NCBI GenBank assembly: GCA_965225945.1
Contig: CBDDBZ010000029.1
Coordinates: 32,001 to 96,000, forward strand
Source: Alphaproteobacteria bacterium
GTDB taxonomy: Bacteria > Pseudomonadota > Alphaproteobacteria > GCA-2731375
Direction of reading: 5' to 3'
DNA length: 64,000 nucleotides
In this document: positions 7,695 to 46,160 of the stretch, one piece after another
Layout of the letters: each line of letters starts with the position of its first letter
Numbering within the stretch: position 1 is the stretch's first letter
Translations under genes and position numbers: made by a program
Notes under the pieces: generated by a model
The model's database searches: none
Told to the model about the DNA's origin: nothing
The model's input: the letters and a program-made list of their open reading frames with translations, nothing else

Positions 7695-8718
7695 GGCTCA
7701 ATTCGTGAATTGTATGCGTCACCTTGTTACGGCGGCGGCGAGGCAGGCTCGGTCATTGGCGCCGGGGGCGAGGCCGACGAGGTGGAACCAGCTCAGGTAG
7801 TTGTCCAGATAGCGGGTGGCGATGCCGCGGCGGGGACGCAGGAAGTCCTTCAACCGGCTGTGGCGGCTGTTCACCGTCTGCACATGCAGATCGCCCCGAA
7901 CCCGTTCCCCCATCGAGCGGTTGAGTGCTTCGTGGCTCACCCCGAGCGCGGCGGCGCACGGTGGGCAGCTCGCGCCGCCGTCGGAGACCAGCAGGGCGTC
8001 CTTCGCGACCACCGGGTCGAGGGCAGCCGTGAGCGCCGCCGCATCGACCCTGGGCAGCACCGCGCTGACCGTCGTTCCGCTCCGGTCCGCCGCCATGAGA
8101 ACCGGTACCTGCTCGCGCGAGAGGCCGCGCTGCTTCGGCTTGCCGCCCCGCCGCCGTGCCTTGCGCCCCAGCCCGCGCGCGCCCTTCCGGCTCTCCAGGA
8201 CGTAGGTCTCGTCCGCTTCCACGATCCCCTTGAGCACCTCCGAATCGCTTCGCGCCGCCGCCAGAAACCGGTGACGCCAGCGGAACGCCGTGCTCACCGC
8301 CACGTCGCAGCGCGCCGCCGCGCCTTCACCGTCTCCCCCTTCGCCAGCGACGCCCCGAACGACAGCCAGCGTTCCTTGTGGTGCAAGCCCGACAGCGGCG
8401 TACCGCTCAGCGCGTTGAAGGTCCTGCCGCAGCCCTTGCACTGGTAGCGCCGCAGACCCCGCGCCATACCGCGCGAAACCGCCCCTTCGCTCGCGCAGTG
8501 CGGACAGCGCCGGGCCTCGTCCACACCAAGCTCGATCGCGGCCTTCGATGCCTCGCCCTCGCTCCGGCCCGACAGCACCGCGAGCGCCTCGCGCCGCTGC
8601 GCGCGCGTCAGCCCGCGCGCCGCCGAAAGCCACACCTGGAAACCCTTGCCGTCCATAACCCAACCTCCTGACGTTCCAGGCACTCTATCACTAATGCATA
8701 CAATTCACGAATTGAGCC
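7695..8718 (-). mobile_element. IS1595-family insertion sequence (1024 bp)
   Basis: Terminal IRs GGCTCAATTCGTGAATTGTATGC / GCATACAATTCACGAATTGAGCC; 8-bp direct repeat TTCATTTT at 7687-7694 and 8719-8726. Confidence 0.92.
7719..8656 (-). pseudogene. IS1595-family transposase, frameshifted near 8300-8330
   Basis: Zn finger (CPHC...YQCKGC) and the ISXO2-like DDE part (VEADETY, LVSDG, HVQTVNSRHSRLK) lie in different frames. Confidence 0.85.
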
Positions 8719-9005: not shown

Positions 9006-10065
9006 GGGTCATTCTGCTTTTGTTCCGCTCCAGCGAATAAAGTAGAACCTGACTACGCATCAACCTCAGCTAATTTGAGGAGCCGATATGGCATGGGGGG
9101 CGTGCGCAGGGCGTCGCGTCCGAGGGCCTCGATCATGTCGGCGAGCCGGTAGCGGCGGTTATATCGGTATTGGAACGCCGCCAGGTAGCGCGGAACGTGT
9201 TTGGGCCGGATCGCATGGTAGGTGCCACGCAGGGTGTTCTTGAGATTGCCGAGGGTGGTGTTGACCCATTTGAAGGCCGGCACGGCGACGGCCCCTGGTC
9301 CGGAGCCGGTGGGTATCGGATGGTGGGCGCAGCCTTGCGCGGTGACCGCGGTGAAGCAGTTGAGCCCGTCGCTGAAGACGCTCGTCCCGGGGCTCAGGTC
9401 GCGCTTGGCCATCTTGGCGATTTCGGCCTTGCGGAAGCCCTTGACGCGGCGCAGCTTGATGCGCACGGGCTGGCCCTCCGCCGTGGCTCGGCGGCGATAA
9501 ATGGCGTCTTGCCCGGCGCGCCCCGGCCGCGCTTGGCCCCGGAACGCCGGCCGCCGAGGTAGGCGTCGTCCATCTCCACCCGCCCGGTGAGCGGCAATTT
9601 GGCGTCGCGCGAGCATGGGCATCAGTTTCTGCTTGATCTTCCAGGCCGTGGTCTGGGTGAGCCGAGCCGTCGGCCGATTGTTCGATGGAGGAGATCCCCT
9701 TCTTCGATTGGGTCATGTGATAGATCGCCGAAAACCACAGGGTCAGCGCCAGCTTGGTCGCGTGGAAGAGCGTGCCGGCGGTCAGCGAGACTTGATGACG
9801 GCAGGCGGCGCATTGGTAGAGTTTTCGCCCGGCGATCTCGCAATGGCGCGTGGCACCGCATCGGGGGCAGGAGAAGCCCTCCGGCCAACGCCAGCGGAAC
9901 GGCCTCGCGGCCTGCTCCTCGGTGCCGTACATTTCACGGAAACGCGGCTCGCTGAGTCACCTTGTTGCGTGCATTGTGAACCTCCAGAAAAACCACCAAA
10001 TATTCACGATTTGTACCACATCAATCCGGCTGAGTAAGGTGCGTAATCAGGAAGTAGAATGACCC
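9006..10065. repeat. REP-like palindrome split by an IS1595 insertion
   Basis: Removing the IS restores GGGTCATTCTGCTTT-loop-AAAGTAGAATGACCC (15-bp arms, one mismatch / G-U pair). Confidence 0.65.
9048..10051 (-). mobile_element. Second IS1595-family element (1004 bp) with multiply frameshifted transposase
   Basis: Imperfect IRs CCTGACTACGCATCAACCTCAGC / GCTGAGTAAGGTGCGTAATCAGG; 8-bp DR AAGTAGAA (9040-9047, 10052-10059). Fragments RWPEGFSCPRC, VEMDDAYLGG, VFSDGL, WVNTTLGNLK are spread over several frames. Confidence 0.9.
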
Positions 10066-19931: not shown

Positions 19932-21161
19932 ATGCGTTGTGAAATCGTCGCCGTCGGCACCGAATTGCTGCTCGGCCAGATCGTCGACACCAACTCCAGC
20001 TGGATGGGCGAGCAATTCGCCCTCGCGGGCATCGACTCGCACTACCACACCACGGTCGGCGACAATCTCGAGCGCATGATCGTCACCATTCGCCTTGCCC
20101 TCGAGCGGAGCGACGCGGTCGTCGTCTGCGGTGGCCTGGGCCCGACCCAGGACGACATCACGCGCGAGGCGATCACCGAGGTCATGGGCGTGGCGCTGGA
20201 GCGCGACGCGGCGATGGCGGACCATATCCGAAACATTTTCGCCTCCCGCGGCCGGCGGATGAGCGAGAACAATCTGCAACAGGCCGACCGTCCCGTCGGC
20301 GCCTGGCCCATCCCCGAGATGCCGGGCACCGCGCCGGGCCTGGTGTGCCCGGTGGGCGAGAAGGTGATCTATGCCGTGCCGGGCGTCCCCCATGAGATGC
20401 GGGAGATGCTCACCGGCACCGTGCTGCCCGACCTGCGGCGCCGCGCCGGGGCCAGCGCGGCGATCCGCAGCCGGGTGCTCAAGACTTGGGGCAACTCGGA
20501 GTCCGGCCTCGCCGAACTGCTGGCCGGCCGAATCGAGGCGCTGGACCGGACCGGCAATCCGACCCTCGCCTTCCAGGCGAGCGGGATCGAGGGCCTGAAG
20601 ATCCGCATCACCGCCAAGGCCGAGGACGACGCGGCCGCGGGCCGGATCCTCGACGAGGAGGAGGTGACGGTTCGCGCCATCCTGGGCGACGTCGTCTTCG
20701 CCCTCGACGACGCCAGCATGGAATCCGTCGTCCTCGACATGCTGAAGGCCCGGGGCATGACCTTGGGGGTCGCGGAATCGATGACCGGCGGCCTGGTCGG
20801 CGCCCGCCTCGCCGCCATCCCGGGCGCCAGCGCCGTCTTCCGGGGCGCCATCGTCGCCTATGCGCGCGACGTCAAGTTTGCCCTCCTGGGCGTGCCCGAG
20901 GGCCCGGTGGTGAGCGAGGACTGCGCCAAGGCGATGGCGGAAGGGGTCCGCCGCGTCCTCGGCGCCGACGTCGGCCTGGCGACCACGGGCGTCGCCGGCC
21001 CCGACGAACTGGAGGGCCAGCCGGTGGGCCTCGCGATCCTCGGCCTGGCCACGGCCGAGGGCGCCAAGGCGTTGTCGGTCCGCTTGCCGGGCGACCGGAA
21101 CCGGATCCGCGAATACGCGGTGATCAACCTGTTGAATTTCCTTCGCCGCGAACTCGCCTGA
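19932..21161 (+). CDS. cinA: CinA-family protein (MoCo-binding-like domain + PncC NMN deamidase)
   Basis: EIVAVGTELLLGQIVDTN, GGLGPTQDDIT, VAESMTGG, TTGVAGP. Confidence 0.92.
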   Translation: MRCEIVAVGTELLLGQIVDTNSSWMGEQFALAGIDSHYHTTVGDNLERMIVTIRLALERSDAVVVCGGLGPTQDDITREAITEVMGVALERDAAMADHIRNIFASRGRRMSENNLQQADRPVGAWPIPEMPGTAPGLVCPVGEKVIYAVPGVPHEMREMLTGTVLPDLRRRAGASAAIRSRVLKTWGNSESGLAELLAGRIEALDRTGNPTLAFQASGIEGLKIRITAKAEDDAAAGRILDEEEVTVRAILGDVVFALDDASMESVVLDMLKARGMTLGVAESMTGGLVGARLAAIPGASAVFRGAIVAYARDVKFALLGVPEGPVVSEDCAKAMAEGVRRVLGADVGLATTGVAGPDELEGQPVGLAILGLATAEGAKALSVRLPGDRNRIREYAVINLLNFLRRELA

Positions 21162-21260: not shown

Positions 21261-21678
21261 TTACTTTCGTCGATGGCTGACGATTCGCGAAATCACGTTC
21301 AATTTTTTTCGGAGTTGGTCCGCGGAGAACGGCTTTCTGATATACCCGGTCACGCCGTAGGTCTTGGCTTCCACAACCGCCTCCAGATCGGCGTTACCGG
21401 TGATCATGAGGAACGGCAGATCTGGACCGCAGGTCCGAATCTGTTTCAACAATTCCAAACCAGATAATCTCGGCATATTCCAGTCACACAGAATAACATC
21501 AACAGAATCATCTCCGTCGGCAAACCCCATGAAGTTTAGGGCTAGCATACCATTCTTGGCGGTAAAATTTGGGTCATGCCAAATCTTTCAGCATGTTCTT
21601 TATCAGGTTCATCGCCTCACGATTGTCCTCAACCAGCAAAATTCTTAAATCTTCAAGAGGTTCGTCGAGAAATTTCAT
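21261..21678 (-). pseudogene. CheY-like response regulator with homopolymer frameshifts
   Basis: MKFLDEPLEDLRILLVEDN from 21678 hits a stop near 21575; the remainder (ILCDWNMP, YIRKPF) follows after the break. Could be sequencing error. Confidence 0.75.
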
Positions 21679-22167
21679 CGTTCGGACACTCCCCGGGCTA
21701 GCCGTGTATCTTAACGCTAGTCCTATCGAGTTCCATTCGGATCGCGTGGGCAAGCTGACCCGGTTTTATCGGTTTTTGCAGGAAGGGTGTATTTTCCTGA
21801 ATTTCGATTTTTCCGGCACCGCGCTTCGGATAGCCCGACATGAAAACTGCCTTCATGTCCGAACGCCTTTCCTTAAGAATCTCGTAAAGCTCAAAGCCGC
21901 CCAGAGATGGCATCACCACGTCGCTTAGAAGAAGATCAACAGGTTTTTCCATTGCCTCATCGACCGTAAGGGCCTCAAATCCGTTATCAGCCACAACAAC
22001 CTTGTAACCCAGATCGTAGAGCCAATCATAAATCAACTCCAGCAGCCGATTGTCGTCCTCAACCAAAAGGATCGTTTCGCCATTACCTCTATGCTCTATC
22101 TGCTCTTGGATTGATTTGAGGGTGGGTGATCGTTTGGCAACCGGCAAGTAGATATAAACGGTCGTTC

Positions 22168-22922
22168 CTTGCCTATCCGGTTATCACCCACACCCACTAT
22201 ATGTAGTGTGTCTCCTTGGACTGCAGGCAAGGGCCGGCGCAGGCGCATTGAGGAGGCGATCCGGCTAATTCTTGATTGTTCTGAAAACCGAACCGGAGTT
22301 TAATTCACGTCACGTACTTAACATCGGGGGACGGAACGGTGGCGACCAAGGGAAAAACGAAGAAACCCACGGCCAGACGGGAAGCTGCTGATGAAACGAC
22401 ATCGTCTGAGCGATTGACGGCACTAGTCGAAGAAAGCGACGCGCTGGCACGAATCGTTGCGAAGAACCCGTCCGCGCCTGTTAGTCTCCTGCGCGTTTTG
22501 AGTCGCAGCGAAGACGAAGCGACACGCAAGAACGTGATCCTCAATCCGTTTACTTCATATGACGTATTGAGCGAACTTGAAAACCAGCTCACAGAGCTAT
22601 TTGTGAATAATCCGGCACTCGAATCCTACAATTCAATGAAGCTCTGATTTCCTGGAATATTCCATCGGTGTCGTTCACCTCCGATTTCAGATAAATTTCA
22701 ATGAAGTGACGGTCCTTTATGCAACGTGGCGTTTTGCCAAATCCGACTCAATGATTAGGATTTCCACCACGCTAAAGTGTCGCCTAAAAGGCGCTACAAT
22801 GCCGTCCGAGTCCCTGCTCGGCATCGCCGGAGATATCTCCGCTTCGACCTGCACCGAGCTTTACTCAGGAAAATGGGTGCACACTACATATAGTGGGTGT
22901 GGGTGATAACCGGATAGGCAAG
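22168..22922 (+). mobile_element. Non-autonomous TIR cassette (MIC/MITE-like), copy 1, 755 bp
   Basis: Perfect 43-bp TIRs (22168-22210, 22880-22922); 8-bp DR GGTCGTTC (22160-22167, 22923-22930); no transposase. Confidence 0.93.
22339..22647 (+). CDS. Cargo ORF, LRV/HEAT-like repeat protein (102 aa)
   Basis: GTG start after GGGGGA; repeats VAKNPSAP...LS...R.NV..NP.T...NNPAL resemble leucine-rich-repeat-variant/HEAT units. Confidence 0.6.
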   Translation: MATKGKTKKPTARREAADETTSSERLTALVEESDALARIVAKNPSAPVSLLRVLSRSEDEATRKNVILNPFTSYDVLSELENQLTELFVNNPALESYNSMKL

Positions 22923-25894
22923 GGTCGTTCCTTTGCTAACGGAACTGATGACCTCGAGTTTTCCCCCTGACTGTCGCGCAAAACCGTAGGCCATCGATAA
23001 TCCGAGTCCGGTTCCTTGCCCCTGTTCCTTGGTGGTAAAGAACGGCTCGAAGATATGCTCCATCGTGTTTTCGTCGATCCCGCAGCCCTTATCGGTTACG
23101 GAAATTTCTACAAAACTTTCCTCGGGCGTATTTTCGTCAGACTCGATGAATTCCGCATCCCCACCGATGACCCGGACACCGATCGTGATCTTTCCACCCT
23201 CTGGCATGGCATCACGTGCGTTGATGGCAAGATTGAGGATGGCTTGACTCAACTCTCCCGGGTCAGTGTGTACACACACTTTCTTGTCCGAGATCTCGAA
23301 TTCCAACTCATGCTGTTCCCCGACGGATTGCTCTAGAAGCCGCTTGAGCTCACTCACCGATTCGGCAACCGGAAACACCTGTTTGTCCATGATCTGTCGG
23401 CGGCTGAAGCCGAGCAGTTGCTTAGTGAGGTTTGCCGCCTTTTCCGTCGCGGCCAGGACTTCCTCCAGGGACCTTCCCGCTATCTCCACATCACCGATGT
23501 TGCTCAGCGTGCGCCGTGCGTAACCGTCTATAATCATGAGAAGGTTATTGAAATCGTGGGCAATGCCGCCGGTCAACTGACCGATCGCTTCCATCTTCTG
23601 CGATTGAGTCAACTGCTGCTCAACGCGCTTGCGCTCGGTGATGTCGTACATCATGACCATGAAGGTCGTTTGCCCCCCGGACTCGAGCTTGGAAATCACC
23701 GCTTCCGCCGGAAACTCGGTTCCATCCTTTCGCAGACCAAGAATCTCCTTCCCCAAGCCCATCACATGCTGGCCCCGGGACATTGTTTTGAATTCTTCCA
23801 GGTGCTTGTGATGAATATCCCTGAATCTAGTAGGAATAAGCCTATCGAGAGTTTGTCCGATCATCTCCTGGGCGGAGTGACCGAATATGGCTTCGGCCCC
23901 CTTGTTGAACAACTCGATGCGGCCATTTCCATCGACGGTAATGACGCCCTCCGGCGCGATATCGAGGATCTCCGCAAGCCGCTCCTCCGAAGCCAGAAGC
24001 GCATCCTCCGCCCGCTTGCGTTCCGTGATGTCGCGTTCGGTGGTGGCGAGGCCGACGGGCTTGCCGTGCTCGCCGACGAGGAGGGTGACCGTCAGCGATA
24101 CTTCGAGGAGCCGTCCGTCCTTGGCGCGGCGCTGCGTCCTGAAGACCGAGACATCTTCGCCTCGTGTGTTCGCCAGGGCGATCTCCTCGGCCTCCGCCCG
24201 CTTGTCCTCGGGCATGAGGTCCCTGGCGTTCATCTTCAGCGCCTCGGCCTCGCTGTAGCCATACATCGCCTCGGCGCCGCGGTTCCAGGCGATGATTTGG
24301 CCGCTGAAATCCTGCATTGTGATGGCGTCGTGGGAGTCCCTGACCACGGCCGCCATGCGGCGCTGTTCGGTCTCGATGCGCTTGCGCTCGGTAACTTCCT
24401 TTTCGAGCTCGGCATTGGTCTTGCGAAGCTCGGCGGTGCGTTCGCGGACGCGGCGCTCCAGGGAGTCGCGTGCCTCGCGAAGCGCCTCCTCGGCGCGGGC
24501 GCGCGCGGCAAGCTCGCTCGTCAGGTCCCGGGTGCGTTCCGCCACCCTTCCCTCGAGCTGTTCGCGCGCATCCTCGATCCTTCGCAGGGCGCGCGCCAGG
24601 TTCTCCACCATGGCATTGAAGGCCCGGGCCAGGTGGCCGAACTCGTCCCTGCTCGCGGCCTCGATCCTGTGAGCCAGATCGCCGCCCCCGACGATCTCCG
24701 CCCCGCTGACCAAGGCGCGAATAGGCCCGATGATCGCCCGGGATATGACCCACGCCGCCGCGATTGCCACGCATAGGCCCATCAGACCCAGGAGAATGAG
24801 GTAGAGTGCCGCCAAATCGGTCGAGGTTTTCGCGTCCGCCGCCGCCGCCACCGTCTCGGCATGGATCAAGGGCTGGATCTGGTTGTCCAAAATGGCGTCA
24901 ATCTTCGCGAGGTGCTGTTCGAATTCCTCGAGGCGCGTGTTCAACCCGTCGGTGACCGTCATGATCCGTTCGCCGGCCATCACGGCCTCCGCGAAGTTCC
25001 GGTCGATCTGGTCGAGCCAGCCTTTTTCCTTGGTGGAGAGGCTGGTCTCCCGATAGATCGTCTCGTAGCGTTCGAAGTCCGCCTCCGCGTCCTCGAGCTC
25101 GAGGCGAAGGGTGGGATCCGGCCGGGCGGCATAGCCCTCGATGGCGGCGAAGGCTTTGAAAATATTGATTTCCATGTCGAGCGTGCTATGCAGCTTCATC
25201 ATCCCCTCGTGGGCTGTCGTATCGAGGGCCTTCTGAAGCTTTCCGTCGATCAGCTCGTCGATCTCCAGGACATCGCGCCGGAAGGTCTCCAGGGCGTTGC
25301 GCCGCAGGTCCGAGAGCCCGACGATCTCATCGCCCAGCGCCTTGAACACCCCATGGAGCCCGGCCACCTCTCGGCCGAGCCGGCGCTCGTCGTCGGTCTC
25401 CGCCAGGCGCTCGAAGTCCCGGGAGAAGCGCTCGAAGTCGGCCTCCGAATCGCGCCGCGCCTCGATGTGTTCGGGGGCCAATTCCCGGACGTAATCGAGC
25501 ACCGCCCGGGCGCCCTCCCCGGCGTTGATCTCCATTTCCAGGGCGGCCCGCTCGAGCGGCTCCTCGACCGCCACGAACCGGCGCAGGTCGCGATCGATCT
25601 GTTGGATGGAGCGGTAGGAGACCAGGCCGCTCACGGCCAGAACCAGGACCAGCAGCCCGAACGCCAGCCACAGCTTTCCGGCCACCCCCCAAATCCCCGG
25701 CGCTTTAAGCCCGGGGAAGCCCTTCCCGACAACCATGCCTATTCATTCCCTTCCGCAACGCCGGATGGACTGCTCGTATCGCTTGACGCTCTTGCGATTG
25801 AAAAGTATCTCATCTATTCAGTTGTAGTTAATGAAATAATCACGTTAAAAATTGCTTAAGATCTCCACAGGTCAACTATTCAGGGTTAAAGCGG

Positions 25895-45300: not shown

Positions 45301-46160
45301 CTTCGCCTATCCGCCGTTAGCAGGGCACTTCCACACCCAGGGCTATATGTAGCGTGCCGCACCCATTTTCAGCTGAGCTGAAAGCTCGGTCCGCAGGCCG
45401 AAGCGGAGATATCTCGCGGCGAGAGGCCGAGCAGCCTTGGACTCGGACGGCATTGTAGCGCCTTTTAGGCGCGCCCTTTAGCAGGTGGTGTCCGAAATCC
45501 TAATCATTGAGCGGATTTGGCGAAAACGCCACGTTGCATAAAGGACCGTCACTTCATTGAAATTTATCTGAAATCGGAGGTCGCAACGCCGCCGATGGAA
45601 CCGTCTTCCTTCGCCAGCGAGGAAATCAGAGCTTCATGTGGTGCAAATTGTAGGATTCGAGTGCCGGATTATTCACAAATAGCTCTGTGAACTGGTTTTC
45701 AAGCCGCAGACCCCGCGCAATACGTCATATGAAGTAAACGGATTGAGGATCACGGGTTCCACACCAAGCTGTCGGCTTCGTCTTCGCCCTGCGACTCAAA
45801 ACGCGCAGGAGACTAACAGGCGCGGACGGCCTCGCGCTTCGCTACGATTCGTGCCAGCGCGCGCGCTTTCTTCGACCTGGTGCCGTCAATCGCCCAGACG
45901 ATGACGTTTCATCAGCAGCTTCCCGTCTGGCATACGTGGGTTGAGCCTTCGTTTTTCGCGCGCAAGGTCGCCACCGTTCCGTCCCCCGATGTTAAGTACG
46001 TGACGTGCGGACGAAAAGCCGGTTCGGCGAGTATCAGAACAATCAAGAATTCGCCCGCCATGATCGCCTCCTCAACGGGCGCCTGCGCCGGCCCTTCGCC
46101 TGCAGTCCAAGGAGACACACTACATATAGTGAAGTGTGGGTCAATAACCGGATAGGCAAG
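45301..46160 (-). mobile_element. Non-autonomous TIR cassette, copy 2 (inverted, indel-rich)
   Basis: Colinear reverse complement of 22168-22922 with many short insertions; DR GATTGATG at 45293-45300 and 46163-46170. Confidence 0.88.

Follow-up and report, generated by a model that had tools for sequence, protein, structure and literature searches.

What carries a short repeat from place to place when it holds one small gene and no transposase, and whom does that gene serve? The question is raised by a 755-bp unit at positions 22168-22922 of a 64,000-nt stretch of alphaproteobacterial DNA (the window: contig C29:32001-96000 of assembly G000, which spans 6.27 Mb in 39 contigs and is 96.55% complete), where it interrupts a hybrid sensor histidine kinase gene. 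We use the working name element A for this cassette and call its 102-residue product ORF102. By sequence comparison element A belongs to the IS1595 family of insertion sequences (IS), within the ISAcr1-like lineage, as a non-autonomous derivative, and we consider it probable that it is a mobile insertion cassette (MIC) of that family moved in trans, most likely by a resident IS that we term ISB, with ORF102 serving the cassette. The parts of the locus on which the argument rests are as follows, where TIR denotes a terminal inverted repeat, ORF an open reading frame and Tnp a transposase.

22160-22167, no strand: left 8-bp target-site duplication, GGTCGTTC (read directly from the sequence)
22168-22210, plus strand: left TIR of 43 bp, CTTGCCTATCCGGTTATCACCCACACCCACTATATGTAGTGTG, a perfect match to the right TIR
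22211-22338, plus strand: leader of 128 nt between the left TIR and ORF102 (read directly)
22339-22647, plus strand: ORF102, 102 aa, with a Pfam LRV_2 match (ORF list and Pfam scan; element positions 172-480)
22667-22903, plus strand: remnant of an IS1595-family transposase gene, from its 3' end (tblastn with the ISB Tnp)
22706-22906, plus strand: 66-aa ORF within the transposase relic, its stop codon falling in the right TIR
22880-22922, minus strand: right TIR of 43 bp, the perfect reverse complement of CTTGCCTATCCGGTTATCACCCACACCCACTATATGTAGTGTG (read directly)
22923-22930, no strand: right 8-bp target-site duplication, GGTCGTTC (read directly; also the junction in a contig of run X6)
21698-25736, minus strand: hybrid sensor histidine kinase gene (receiver domain at the C-terminus) that the element divides into 22884-25736 and 21698-22147

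The initial annotation of this locus had described perfect 43-bp TIRs, an 8-bp duplication, a 102-aa cargo ORF and a kinase frame that is cleanly restored on removal of the element, and all four were recovered at the positions given above. The duplication may be read as up to 11 bp, CTT being common to the repeat and the TIR, and a Shine-Dalgarno-like motif (GGGGGA) lies ~8 nt upstream of the GTG start of ORF102. Two minus-strand ORFs border the insertion: one of 950 aa (22884-25736), which continues into the element at its right end, and one of 149 aa with a receiver domain (21698-22147), which begins immediately past the left end; in-silico removal of 22168-22930 fuses the two into a single 1091-aa hybrid sensor kinase frame that reads ...SKGTTVYIYLPVAKRSP... 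across the junction. The visibly AT-richer interior proposed at the same time did not hold up, as GC content is 0.48-0.54 in windows over the element and 0.475-0.55 in the flanking ones.

Element A recently multiplied in a burst. BLAST of the element against G000 returned 66 full-length copies (45 at ≥99.5% identity, 12 at 98-99.5%, 7 at 90-98% and 2 below 90%), most of them no more than a single base away from the consensus: 46 copies measure exactly 755 bp, of which 22 are identical to it and 18 carry one difference. Such a number is far above what chance would produce. A further 46 partial matches of at least 100 nt were found, 21 of which are the ends of another IS. Perfect 8-bp duplications flank 50 of the 66 full-length copies, with a target consensus of GTTCGATC, and the flanks of many of the 16 copies that have no duplication recur at other copies, pointing to recombination or to duplication of segments. 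When the 50 inserts with duplications were excised in silico, 32 proved to lie in a stop-free frame of at least 150 codons, compared with 441 of 500 random sites, a measure that over-counts genes in a GC-rich genome. The claim that this is a recently active cassette devoid of transposase is upheld; its mobilization in trans by a cognate IS transposase is what we infer, indirectly, from the burst of identical copies, from an empty site and from co-occurrence with ISB.

An empty site, which the initial annotation had advised looking for, was also found: a 2937-nt contig of sequencing run X6 (depth 17.4) joins 22159 directly to 22923, skipping 763 nt, so that an intact kinase allele is present in this contig. 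The organism label and study code of run X6 differ from those of the run that best holds the window. In the same run, window positions 22156-22953 are represented by single element unitigs at a depth of ~9,500-9,800, against 17.4 for the flank-bearing contig; unitig depth is not equal to copy number, but the difference, even at 66 copies per genome, implies that element A is carried by other organisms in the sample too.

The ends of the element reveal its ancestry. Its right 126 nt (element positions 630-755) are 77% identical at the DNA level to both ends of a second repeat, ISB, a 1105-bp insertion sequence with 10 full-length units in G000 (e.g. C15:7573-8677), which encodes a 339-aa Tnp with Pfam DDE_Tnp_IS1595 (3.7e-37) and Zn_ribbon_IS1595 (2.3e-13) domains and a match to NCBIfam NF033547, ‘IS1595 family transposase’ (7.6e-57). 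Over its first 16, 32 and all 43 positions the TIR of element A agrees with the transposase-proximal end of ISB at 15/16, 30/32 and 35/43, and with the distal end at 16/16, 26/32 and 35/43. Element positions 688-755 are 83.8% identical to plasmid DNA that 8 of the 11 matching records annotate as ‘IS1595-like element ISAcr1 family transposase’. Plasmid pACRY02 of Acidiphilium cryptum JF-5 carries a 1080-bp copy of ISAcr1 with the 8-bp duplication ATATATTG on either side, and the right inverted repeat (IRR) of this copy is identical to the TIR at 39 of 43 positions. The ends also fit nnnGcnTATC, which we take to be the ISSod11-group consensus of the ISfinder table. Both ends of element A are accordingly IRR-type ends of an ISAcr1-like IS, and the features that define the IS1595 family, an 8-bp duplication and TIRs homologous to catalogued members, are both found.

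The IS1595 family, which the initial annotation had guessed at, was thus well chosen, with ends and duplication alike being of that type. Its statement that the ends match no IS in the window is correct for the window and fails genome-wide, where ISB matches, and beyond, where the catalogued ISAcr1 does. A new element type, its leading proposal, is not what we find, since the TIRs are of the ISAcr1/IS1595 lineage and the architecture is that of the published MIC class. Neither is the interior unexplained: residues 279-338 of the ISB Tnp align by tblastn to element positions 500-736 (39% identity over 79 aa), which identifies the ~230 nt beyond ORF102 as the decayed 3' end of a transposase gene, and the stop codon of this relic lies within the right inverted repeat, as it does in ISB and ISAcr1. 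Because only the last ~60 Tnp residues are left, element A is a derivative and not itself an IS; a Pfam scan of three of its ORFs returned no transposase domain. It had been allowed from the outset that a catalogued IS shortened from within might account for the whole. The TIR does match a catalogued IS, yet internal deletion does not by itself explain the interior, since a gene other than a transposase lies there that is conserved and under selection.

Does a transposase-bearing parent survive in the genome? The search for a longer, transposase-bearing copy between identical ends turned up five units with the exact ends of element A (1504-2353 bp), none of them an autonomous parent. Four are copies of element A with an IS66-like element, an IS630-like element, ISy or ISx nested or fused (the first two names come from reading ORF sequences and not from a family scan), and in the fifth (C28, 1504 bp) a decayed copy adjoins a truncated one. 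ISx was rejected as parent as well, given that its standalone copies (17 of 18) have a different left end. Allowing up to 8 mismatches, a whole-genome search for the TIR gave 182 sites, every one of which lies in copies of element A, in ISB, or in nested copies of element A. Beyond this genome, at none of 76 loci from other genomes and metagenomes does a transposase stand beside the ORF102-type gene (0/76, with 5 weak relic or fragment matches only).

ISB itself is active and occurs in rearranged forms. One, of 1631/1658 bp, joins a complete ISB, across a short spacer, to a copy of the last 505 bp of its own 3' end in inverted orientation, so that both termini are IRR-type within ~126-bp inverted repeats; another is a 1121-bp deletion form with a truncated transposase (examples of the rearranged forms in G000 are C14:57696-59326, C38:177697-179354, C19:59701-60821 and C34:188810-189930). 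Four of the seven rearranged forms checked carry their own exact 8-bp duplications and these forms seem to move as units. Since double-IRR derivatives of ISB have duplications of their own, the resident enzyme evidently accepts such end pairs, the arrangement that element A also displays.

The distribution of element A and ISB across genomes bears on the same point. Eight of 41 relative genomes match element A, including fragments of 99-100% identity in a genome of another genus (G017), a 99% identical fragment in one of another family (G029) and a full copy at 89% in the same genus (G002). Among 401 evenly sampled genomes of the class, ORF102 was detected (E<=1e-10) in three, namely G000, G029 and G213, and a close ISB Tnp (E<=1e-100) in four, namely the same three and G178. 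G213, from another family, holds 755-bp copies that are 99.1-99.5% identical to the window copy, each with its own 8-bp duplication, and the ISB Tnp matches this genome at 47 places, with identities reaching 99%. This co-occurrence is what dependence in trans would predict, and element A has crossed between bacterial families together with ISB. The two also meet directly: at C26:1253-3136 the order, head to tail, is GTTCGATC, A, GTTCGATC, ISB, GTTCGATC, a tandem that reflects either two successive insertions at one target or the targeting of an existing end.

We now turn to the cargo. ORF102 has a Lys/Arg-rich N-terminus followed by helical LRV-type repeats; it scores 34.1 bits against Pfam LRV_2 (PF25591; cutoff 27, E 2.7e-8, residues 12-64) and 19.4 bits, under the cutoff of 21.6, against Pfam LRV (PF01816), and NCBIfam holds no family for it. 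A search of 5.8 billion proteins yielded 234 homologues among 250 candidates, and among the 120 matches listed most are exactly 102 aa long, with identities of 73-98% and, in most cases, a precomputed PF25591 match. Most of the listed homologues sit on contigs of 0.5-1.5 kb, as expected because a repeat breaks assemblies. Longer or fused forms (12 proteins, mostly singletons, with 44-100% query coverage and no recurrent second domain) were set aside as read-through or insertion artefacts. A profile search of PDB sequences with the ORF102 alignment gave chance-level matches only (E 0.48 and 1), and in the ESM Atlas the closest clusters consist of LRV_2/LRV proteins from assorted bacteria and phages, with no functional name attached.

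Relatives of the whole unit proved to be widespread. In reference genomes, 14 loci encode an ORF102 relative, and seven of these are units of 523-546 bp consisting of a ~45-bp TIR, a leader, ORF102 and a second TIR, with no transposase relic; their hosts are alphaproteobacterial metagenome-assembled genomes (MAGs) plus one MAG labelled Dehalococcoidia, and duplications flank them as three exact 8-bp repeats and one that agrees at 7/8. Metagenome contigs contributed 62 loci with a relative, of which 60 were examined (L090 and L091, which match the last 16-21 residues only, were dropped). Both ends are present at 44 of these, 41 measuring 516-560 bp and 3 measuring 754-755 bp, and duplications were read at 14 units exactly and at 3 with 7/8 agreement. 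Taken across the related elements whose length could be determined, an ORF102-type gene lies between the ends in 51 of 51, and 48 of the 51 are units of ~516-560 bp that hold no transposase; the segment corresponding to the transposase relic is missing from these shorter relatives. One copy of the 755 type, in a Rhodospirillales MAG (L015, 500-1527), bears a ~256-bp insertion at about element position 319, inside ORF102.

In the 516-560-bp forms no other conserved gene lies between the ends, and ORF102 might itself be imagined to be a new minimal transposase or recombinase that makes the element autonomous, and in a 22-sequence alignment with 81% mean column identity the acidic residues E15, D59 and D75 are invariant. 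We find this scarcely credible. No catalytic fold is known for an all-helical LRV_2 repeat protein of 102 aa such as ORF102, IS1595 DDE elements have ends and an 8-bp duplication of just this kind, and in 3/3 positive genomes of the class sample ORF102 occurs with ISB.

Selection provides further evidence that ORF102 is more than a chance frame. For six elements with an intact ORF, Nei-Gojobori dN/dS falls between 0.17 and 0.38 in 15/15 pairs, over a dS range of 0.13-1.3. Mean column conservation in 30 family members is 0.89 and 0.88 for the two TIRs, 0.77 for the leader and 0.865 for the ORF, and by codon position within the ORF it is 0.86, 0.93 and 0.81, the third position being lowest. Inside G000 the picture is one of decay: the 46 copies that measure exactly 755 bp show ten distinct variants of the ORF, nine of them nonsynonymous, several variants strike the family-invariant residues K42, R63, N69, D75 and K101, and older copies carry stops and frameshifts in the ORF. 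Purifying selection between lineages combined with neutral decay once a copy has inserted is typical of genes carried by transposons, and implies that selection acts on the propagating lineage and not on each insert. To judge from these substitution patterns, ORF102 is a real gene that is kept intact in the propagating lineage, and it matters.

It is against this background that a plain internal-deletion derivative must be viewed, that is, a miniature inverted-repeat transposable element (MITE) in which the 102-codon ORF is a chance frame with no function. Such an origin would agree with the transposase relic, with the absence of an NCBIfam match and with a sigma-70 and terminator scan that found no sigma-70 consensus promoter upstream of ORF102. 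It is nevertheless highly improbable in view of the 234 homologues (most of those listed being 102 aa; identities 67-98%), the low dN/dS maintained at dS up to 1.3, the codon-position pattern, an LRV_2 score above the gathering threshold, and the fact that the ISB Tnp matches element A only at 500-736, outside the ORF at 172-480.

A more serious contender, which we regard as a real possibility though not the likely one, accepts the same cassette and differs as to whom the gene serves: ORF102 would be host-directed cargo, acting for example in protein-protein interactions during habitat or host association, with the cassette as its mere vehicle, in the manner of resistance genes on classic MICs. 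LRV/HEAT-like repeats are generic protein-binding scaffolds, the ESM Atlas neighbours named above are LRV_2/LRV proteins of mixed bacteria and phages, and published MICs carry passengers useful to the host. Furthermore, four distant reference matches (42-55% identity) are the N-termini (~95 aa) of ~300-aa chromosomal cyanobacterial LRV-repeat proteins that have no TIRs, a resemblance that suggests such proteins as the source of ORF102. Speaking against host cargo, the gene was found only alongside ISB in the 3/3 positive genomes of the class sample, no copy of it was found outside element A in G000, the inserts decay freely there (9 nonsynonymous variants versus 1 synonymous, with stops in old copies), and 48 of the 51 relatives of determined length are reduced to ends plus ORF, as would be a gene dedicated to its element. 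We favor a role for the cassette because of this strict association, the presence of ORF102 in every propagating lineage and the rarity of ORF-less derivatives, of which G000 has a single 448-bp unit with the ends of element A.

Our preferred account, a cassette driven in trans with ORF102 acting on its behalf, would proceed as follows. An IS1595-family DDE transposase made elsewhere in the cell would bind the 43-bp ends, cut targets similar to GTTCGATC with an 8-bp stagger and insert the element there; the enzyme would most probably come from ISB (339-aa Tnp) or a very close relative. Cross-recognition of the TIR by the ISB Tnp appears plausible from the similarity of the ends. The 755-bp form would have arisen when a cassette of ~545 bp gained the 3' end of an ISAcr1-like IS, after which both ends became identical. 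Insertion of element A disrupts host genes, the hybrid kinase of the window included. ORF102 might then act as, e.g., an adaptor that favors use of the borrowed transposase or tunes transposition, which is a guess.

Several observations weigh against this account, some touching the enzyme and some the gene. The TIR of element A differs from both ISB ends at 8/43 positions, and the genome-wide TIR search (≤8 mismatches) revealed no IS with the exact ends of element A plus a transposase in an assembly that is 96.55% complete. G029 has 164 matches to the ISB Tnp and yet only fragments of element A, so the presence of ISB alone does not bring about a burst; conversely, no ISB Tnp was found at E<=1e-60 in G017 (360 contigs, 92% complete) despite its fragments of element A. 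As the genomes are few and partly related, the association of ISB with element A is descriptive. As regards ORF102, the missing sigma-70 consensus has been mentioned, and purifying selection could equally reflect a benefit at the level of the host. An AlphaFold2 (AF2) model built on a 22-row alignment has seven helices and a low-confidence mean pLDDT of 61.1, and in a Foldseek search against the PDB it gave 0 matches at E<=0.001. Metatranscriptome contigs from runs X15, X17 and X19, belonging to three studies, cover 22181-22909 and not the flanks, the lack of flank cover carrying no evidential weight; they hint at transcription and do not prove it, because a DNA contaminant present in 66 copies would also assemble. 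A complex prediction of the ISB Tnp with ORF102 scored 0.02 against a mark of 0.32 and, controls not having been run, is evidence neither way. In runs X15 and X19 we also noted contigs in which the left TIR of element A is followed by 207 other letters and then by element A sequence (22816-22842); these represent another element, present in other samples, with ends as in element A and a different interior in place of window 22211-22816.

The points that concern the enzyme lend themselves to another suggestion, namely that the driver is a different IS1595 transposase, either an ISAcr1-like IS with the exact ends that is missing from the incomplete, 39-contig assembly, or else ISx or ISy. The TIR is indeed nearer to the ISAcr1 IRR (39/43) than to ISB (35/43), candidate enzymes abound (248 IS1595-type tblastn matches in G000, ~18 ISx and ~50 ISy among them), and in G017 element A fragments persist with no close ISB Tnp. 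We nonetheless judge it unlikely, for no other element with ends within 8 mismatches emerged from the genome-wide search, ISx shares just the 12-nt core of its right end, and ISB and element A co-occur and were co-transferred at 99% identity.

The wealth of IS1595-family elements in G000 deserves description in its own right. The 248 matches are non-overlapping tblastn hits to three transposases; the resident elements include ISx (327 aa), ISy (321 aa, its copies near-identical) and a fourth IS1595-type transposase in ~25 copies that is 35% identical to ISx. Within the window, broken pieces of an ISy transposase (C29:39722-40683) and ISx-like fragments of 31-38% identity lie at 7722-8683 and 9077-9941. 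One of the four composite units described above, C32:286358-288088 (L002), is a chimera in which the first 78 nt of element A replace the left end of ISx and the rest of element A resumes at position 29, giving the ISx transposase a new N-terminus that starts at TTG. ISx was found inserted in a TIR of element A at the mirror-image position, ~28 nt from the tip, in two copies, this one and C4:70085-71927.

How does element A compare with what has been described? The prototype MIC is MIC231 of Bacillus cereus, driven by IS231A; the parent family of element A is IS1595 and not IS4. MICs are non-autonomous units with no transposase that are mobilized by an IS, first described in Bacillus cereus (PMC3281130), and element A resembles them in its IS-type inverted repeats, the absence of a transposase inside, its one passenger ORF, a duplication of the parental type and its presumed mobilization in trans. 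In particular, IS-type inverted repeats with no transposase were found in element A, and also at the 76 related loci, with ORF102 as the passenger. Two further features set it apart from MICs: the passenger is one conserved, selected 102-aa protein throughout a diverged cassette family and not an occasional host gene, and its copy number (66) is MITE-like.

With ISAcr1 and ISB, element A shares the terminal sequence CTTGCCTATCCGGTT..., the 8-bp duplication, a transposase stop codon inside the right inverted repeat and homology of its right 126 nt to their 3' end. In contrast to these IS, it has lost the Zn-ribbon and DDE transposase except for a relic (39% identity) that corresponds to the final ~60 residues, its ends are both IRR-type and perfectly identical, and it carries ORF102 instead. 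Like bacterial MITEs, it is non-autonomous, present in many near-identical copies, bounded by a TIR and a duplication, and inserted in genes as well as intergenic DNA. MITEs are usually described as short and non-coding, whereas element A is 755 bp long (relatives 516-560 bp) with a conserved, selected 102-codon ORF, and so falls outside the definition. Siguier, Gagnevin and Chandler reportedly described in 2009 IS1595-family elements with passenger genes (‘transporter IS’), which element A recalls in having IS1595 ends around a gene that is not a transposase; those elements keep their transposase, while element A, its 516-560-bp relatives and the 76 related loci have no intact one. Finally, ORF102 is 42-55% identical to the N-termini of the cyanobacterial LRV proteins and differs from known LRV/LRV_2 proteins (PF01816, PF25591) in being a stand-alone protein of 102 aa on a mobile cassette.

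A literature search, which did not extend to ISfinder or subscription journals, returned no paper dealing with ISAcr1, with PF25591 or with the presence of an LRV gene inside an IS-derived element, and nothing relevant on MITEs in sponge symbionts; matches to ‘LRV2’ concerned a Leishmania virus and not Pfam LRV_2. Among papers on non-autonomous IS1595-family elements, no title or abstract described a cassette of this kind. What is novel here is a family of MICs of IS1595 type whose defining feature is a single small, conserved gene: the gene, rather than the cassette, is new.

The window contains one further member of the family and some neighboring features.

45301-46160, minus strand (opposite orientation to element A): old decayed relative of element A, 83.4% identity over 832 nt

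This is the second copy that the initial annotation had pointed out, and it is indeed present (~83% identical), though old, with its ORF broken by stops and frameshifts. The host gene is adenylate-cyclase-like, and deletion of 870 nt restores the frame ...DDRRLM|FRIGVNVGDV.... Around element A there is a sharp step in GC content, from 0.72-0.75 at 20500-21100, the end of a CinA-like gene (a 409-aa ORF named by reading its sequence), to 0.48-0.55 at 21300-23900, a stretch that spans two receiver-domain ORFs and the 3' half of the kinase gene. A permissive Rfam scan of 21500-23600 matched no RNA family. The promoter scan gave one promoter-like site, at 22734-22761 within the transposase relic, and its counts are no higher than in shuffled sequence.

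For the organism itself, a substantial fraction of the repeats, disrupted genes and probable rearrangements in G000 traces back to element A, and its 99%-identical copies mark recent horizontal exchange with bacteria of another family. More generally, non-autonomous bacterial elements are normally seen either as gene-less (MITEs) or as bearing accidental host cargo (MICs). When a small gene is selected across a diverged, widespread and transposase-less family while its inserts decay, it behaves as one would expect of a gene in the service of the element, and if ORF102 is such a gene it would offer a testable case of a parasite of a parasite that has its own tool. One may go further and propose, tentatively and as something we would not yet call likely, that the 516-755-bp cassettes are a widespread hyperparasite of IS1595-type IS, with ORF102 as their own small helical-repeat adaptor that works preferentially for the very cassette encoding it, for example by capturing or modulating the borrowed transposase. 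If true, this would account for why only lineages with an intact ORF keep spreading, and it would add a new class to the accessory factors of transposition, one whose gene resides on a non-autonomous bacterial element.

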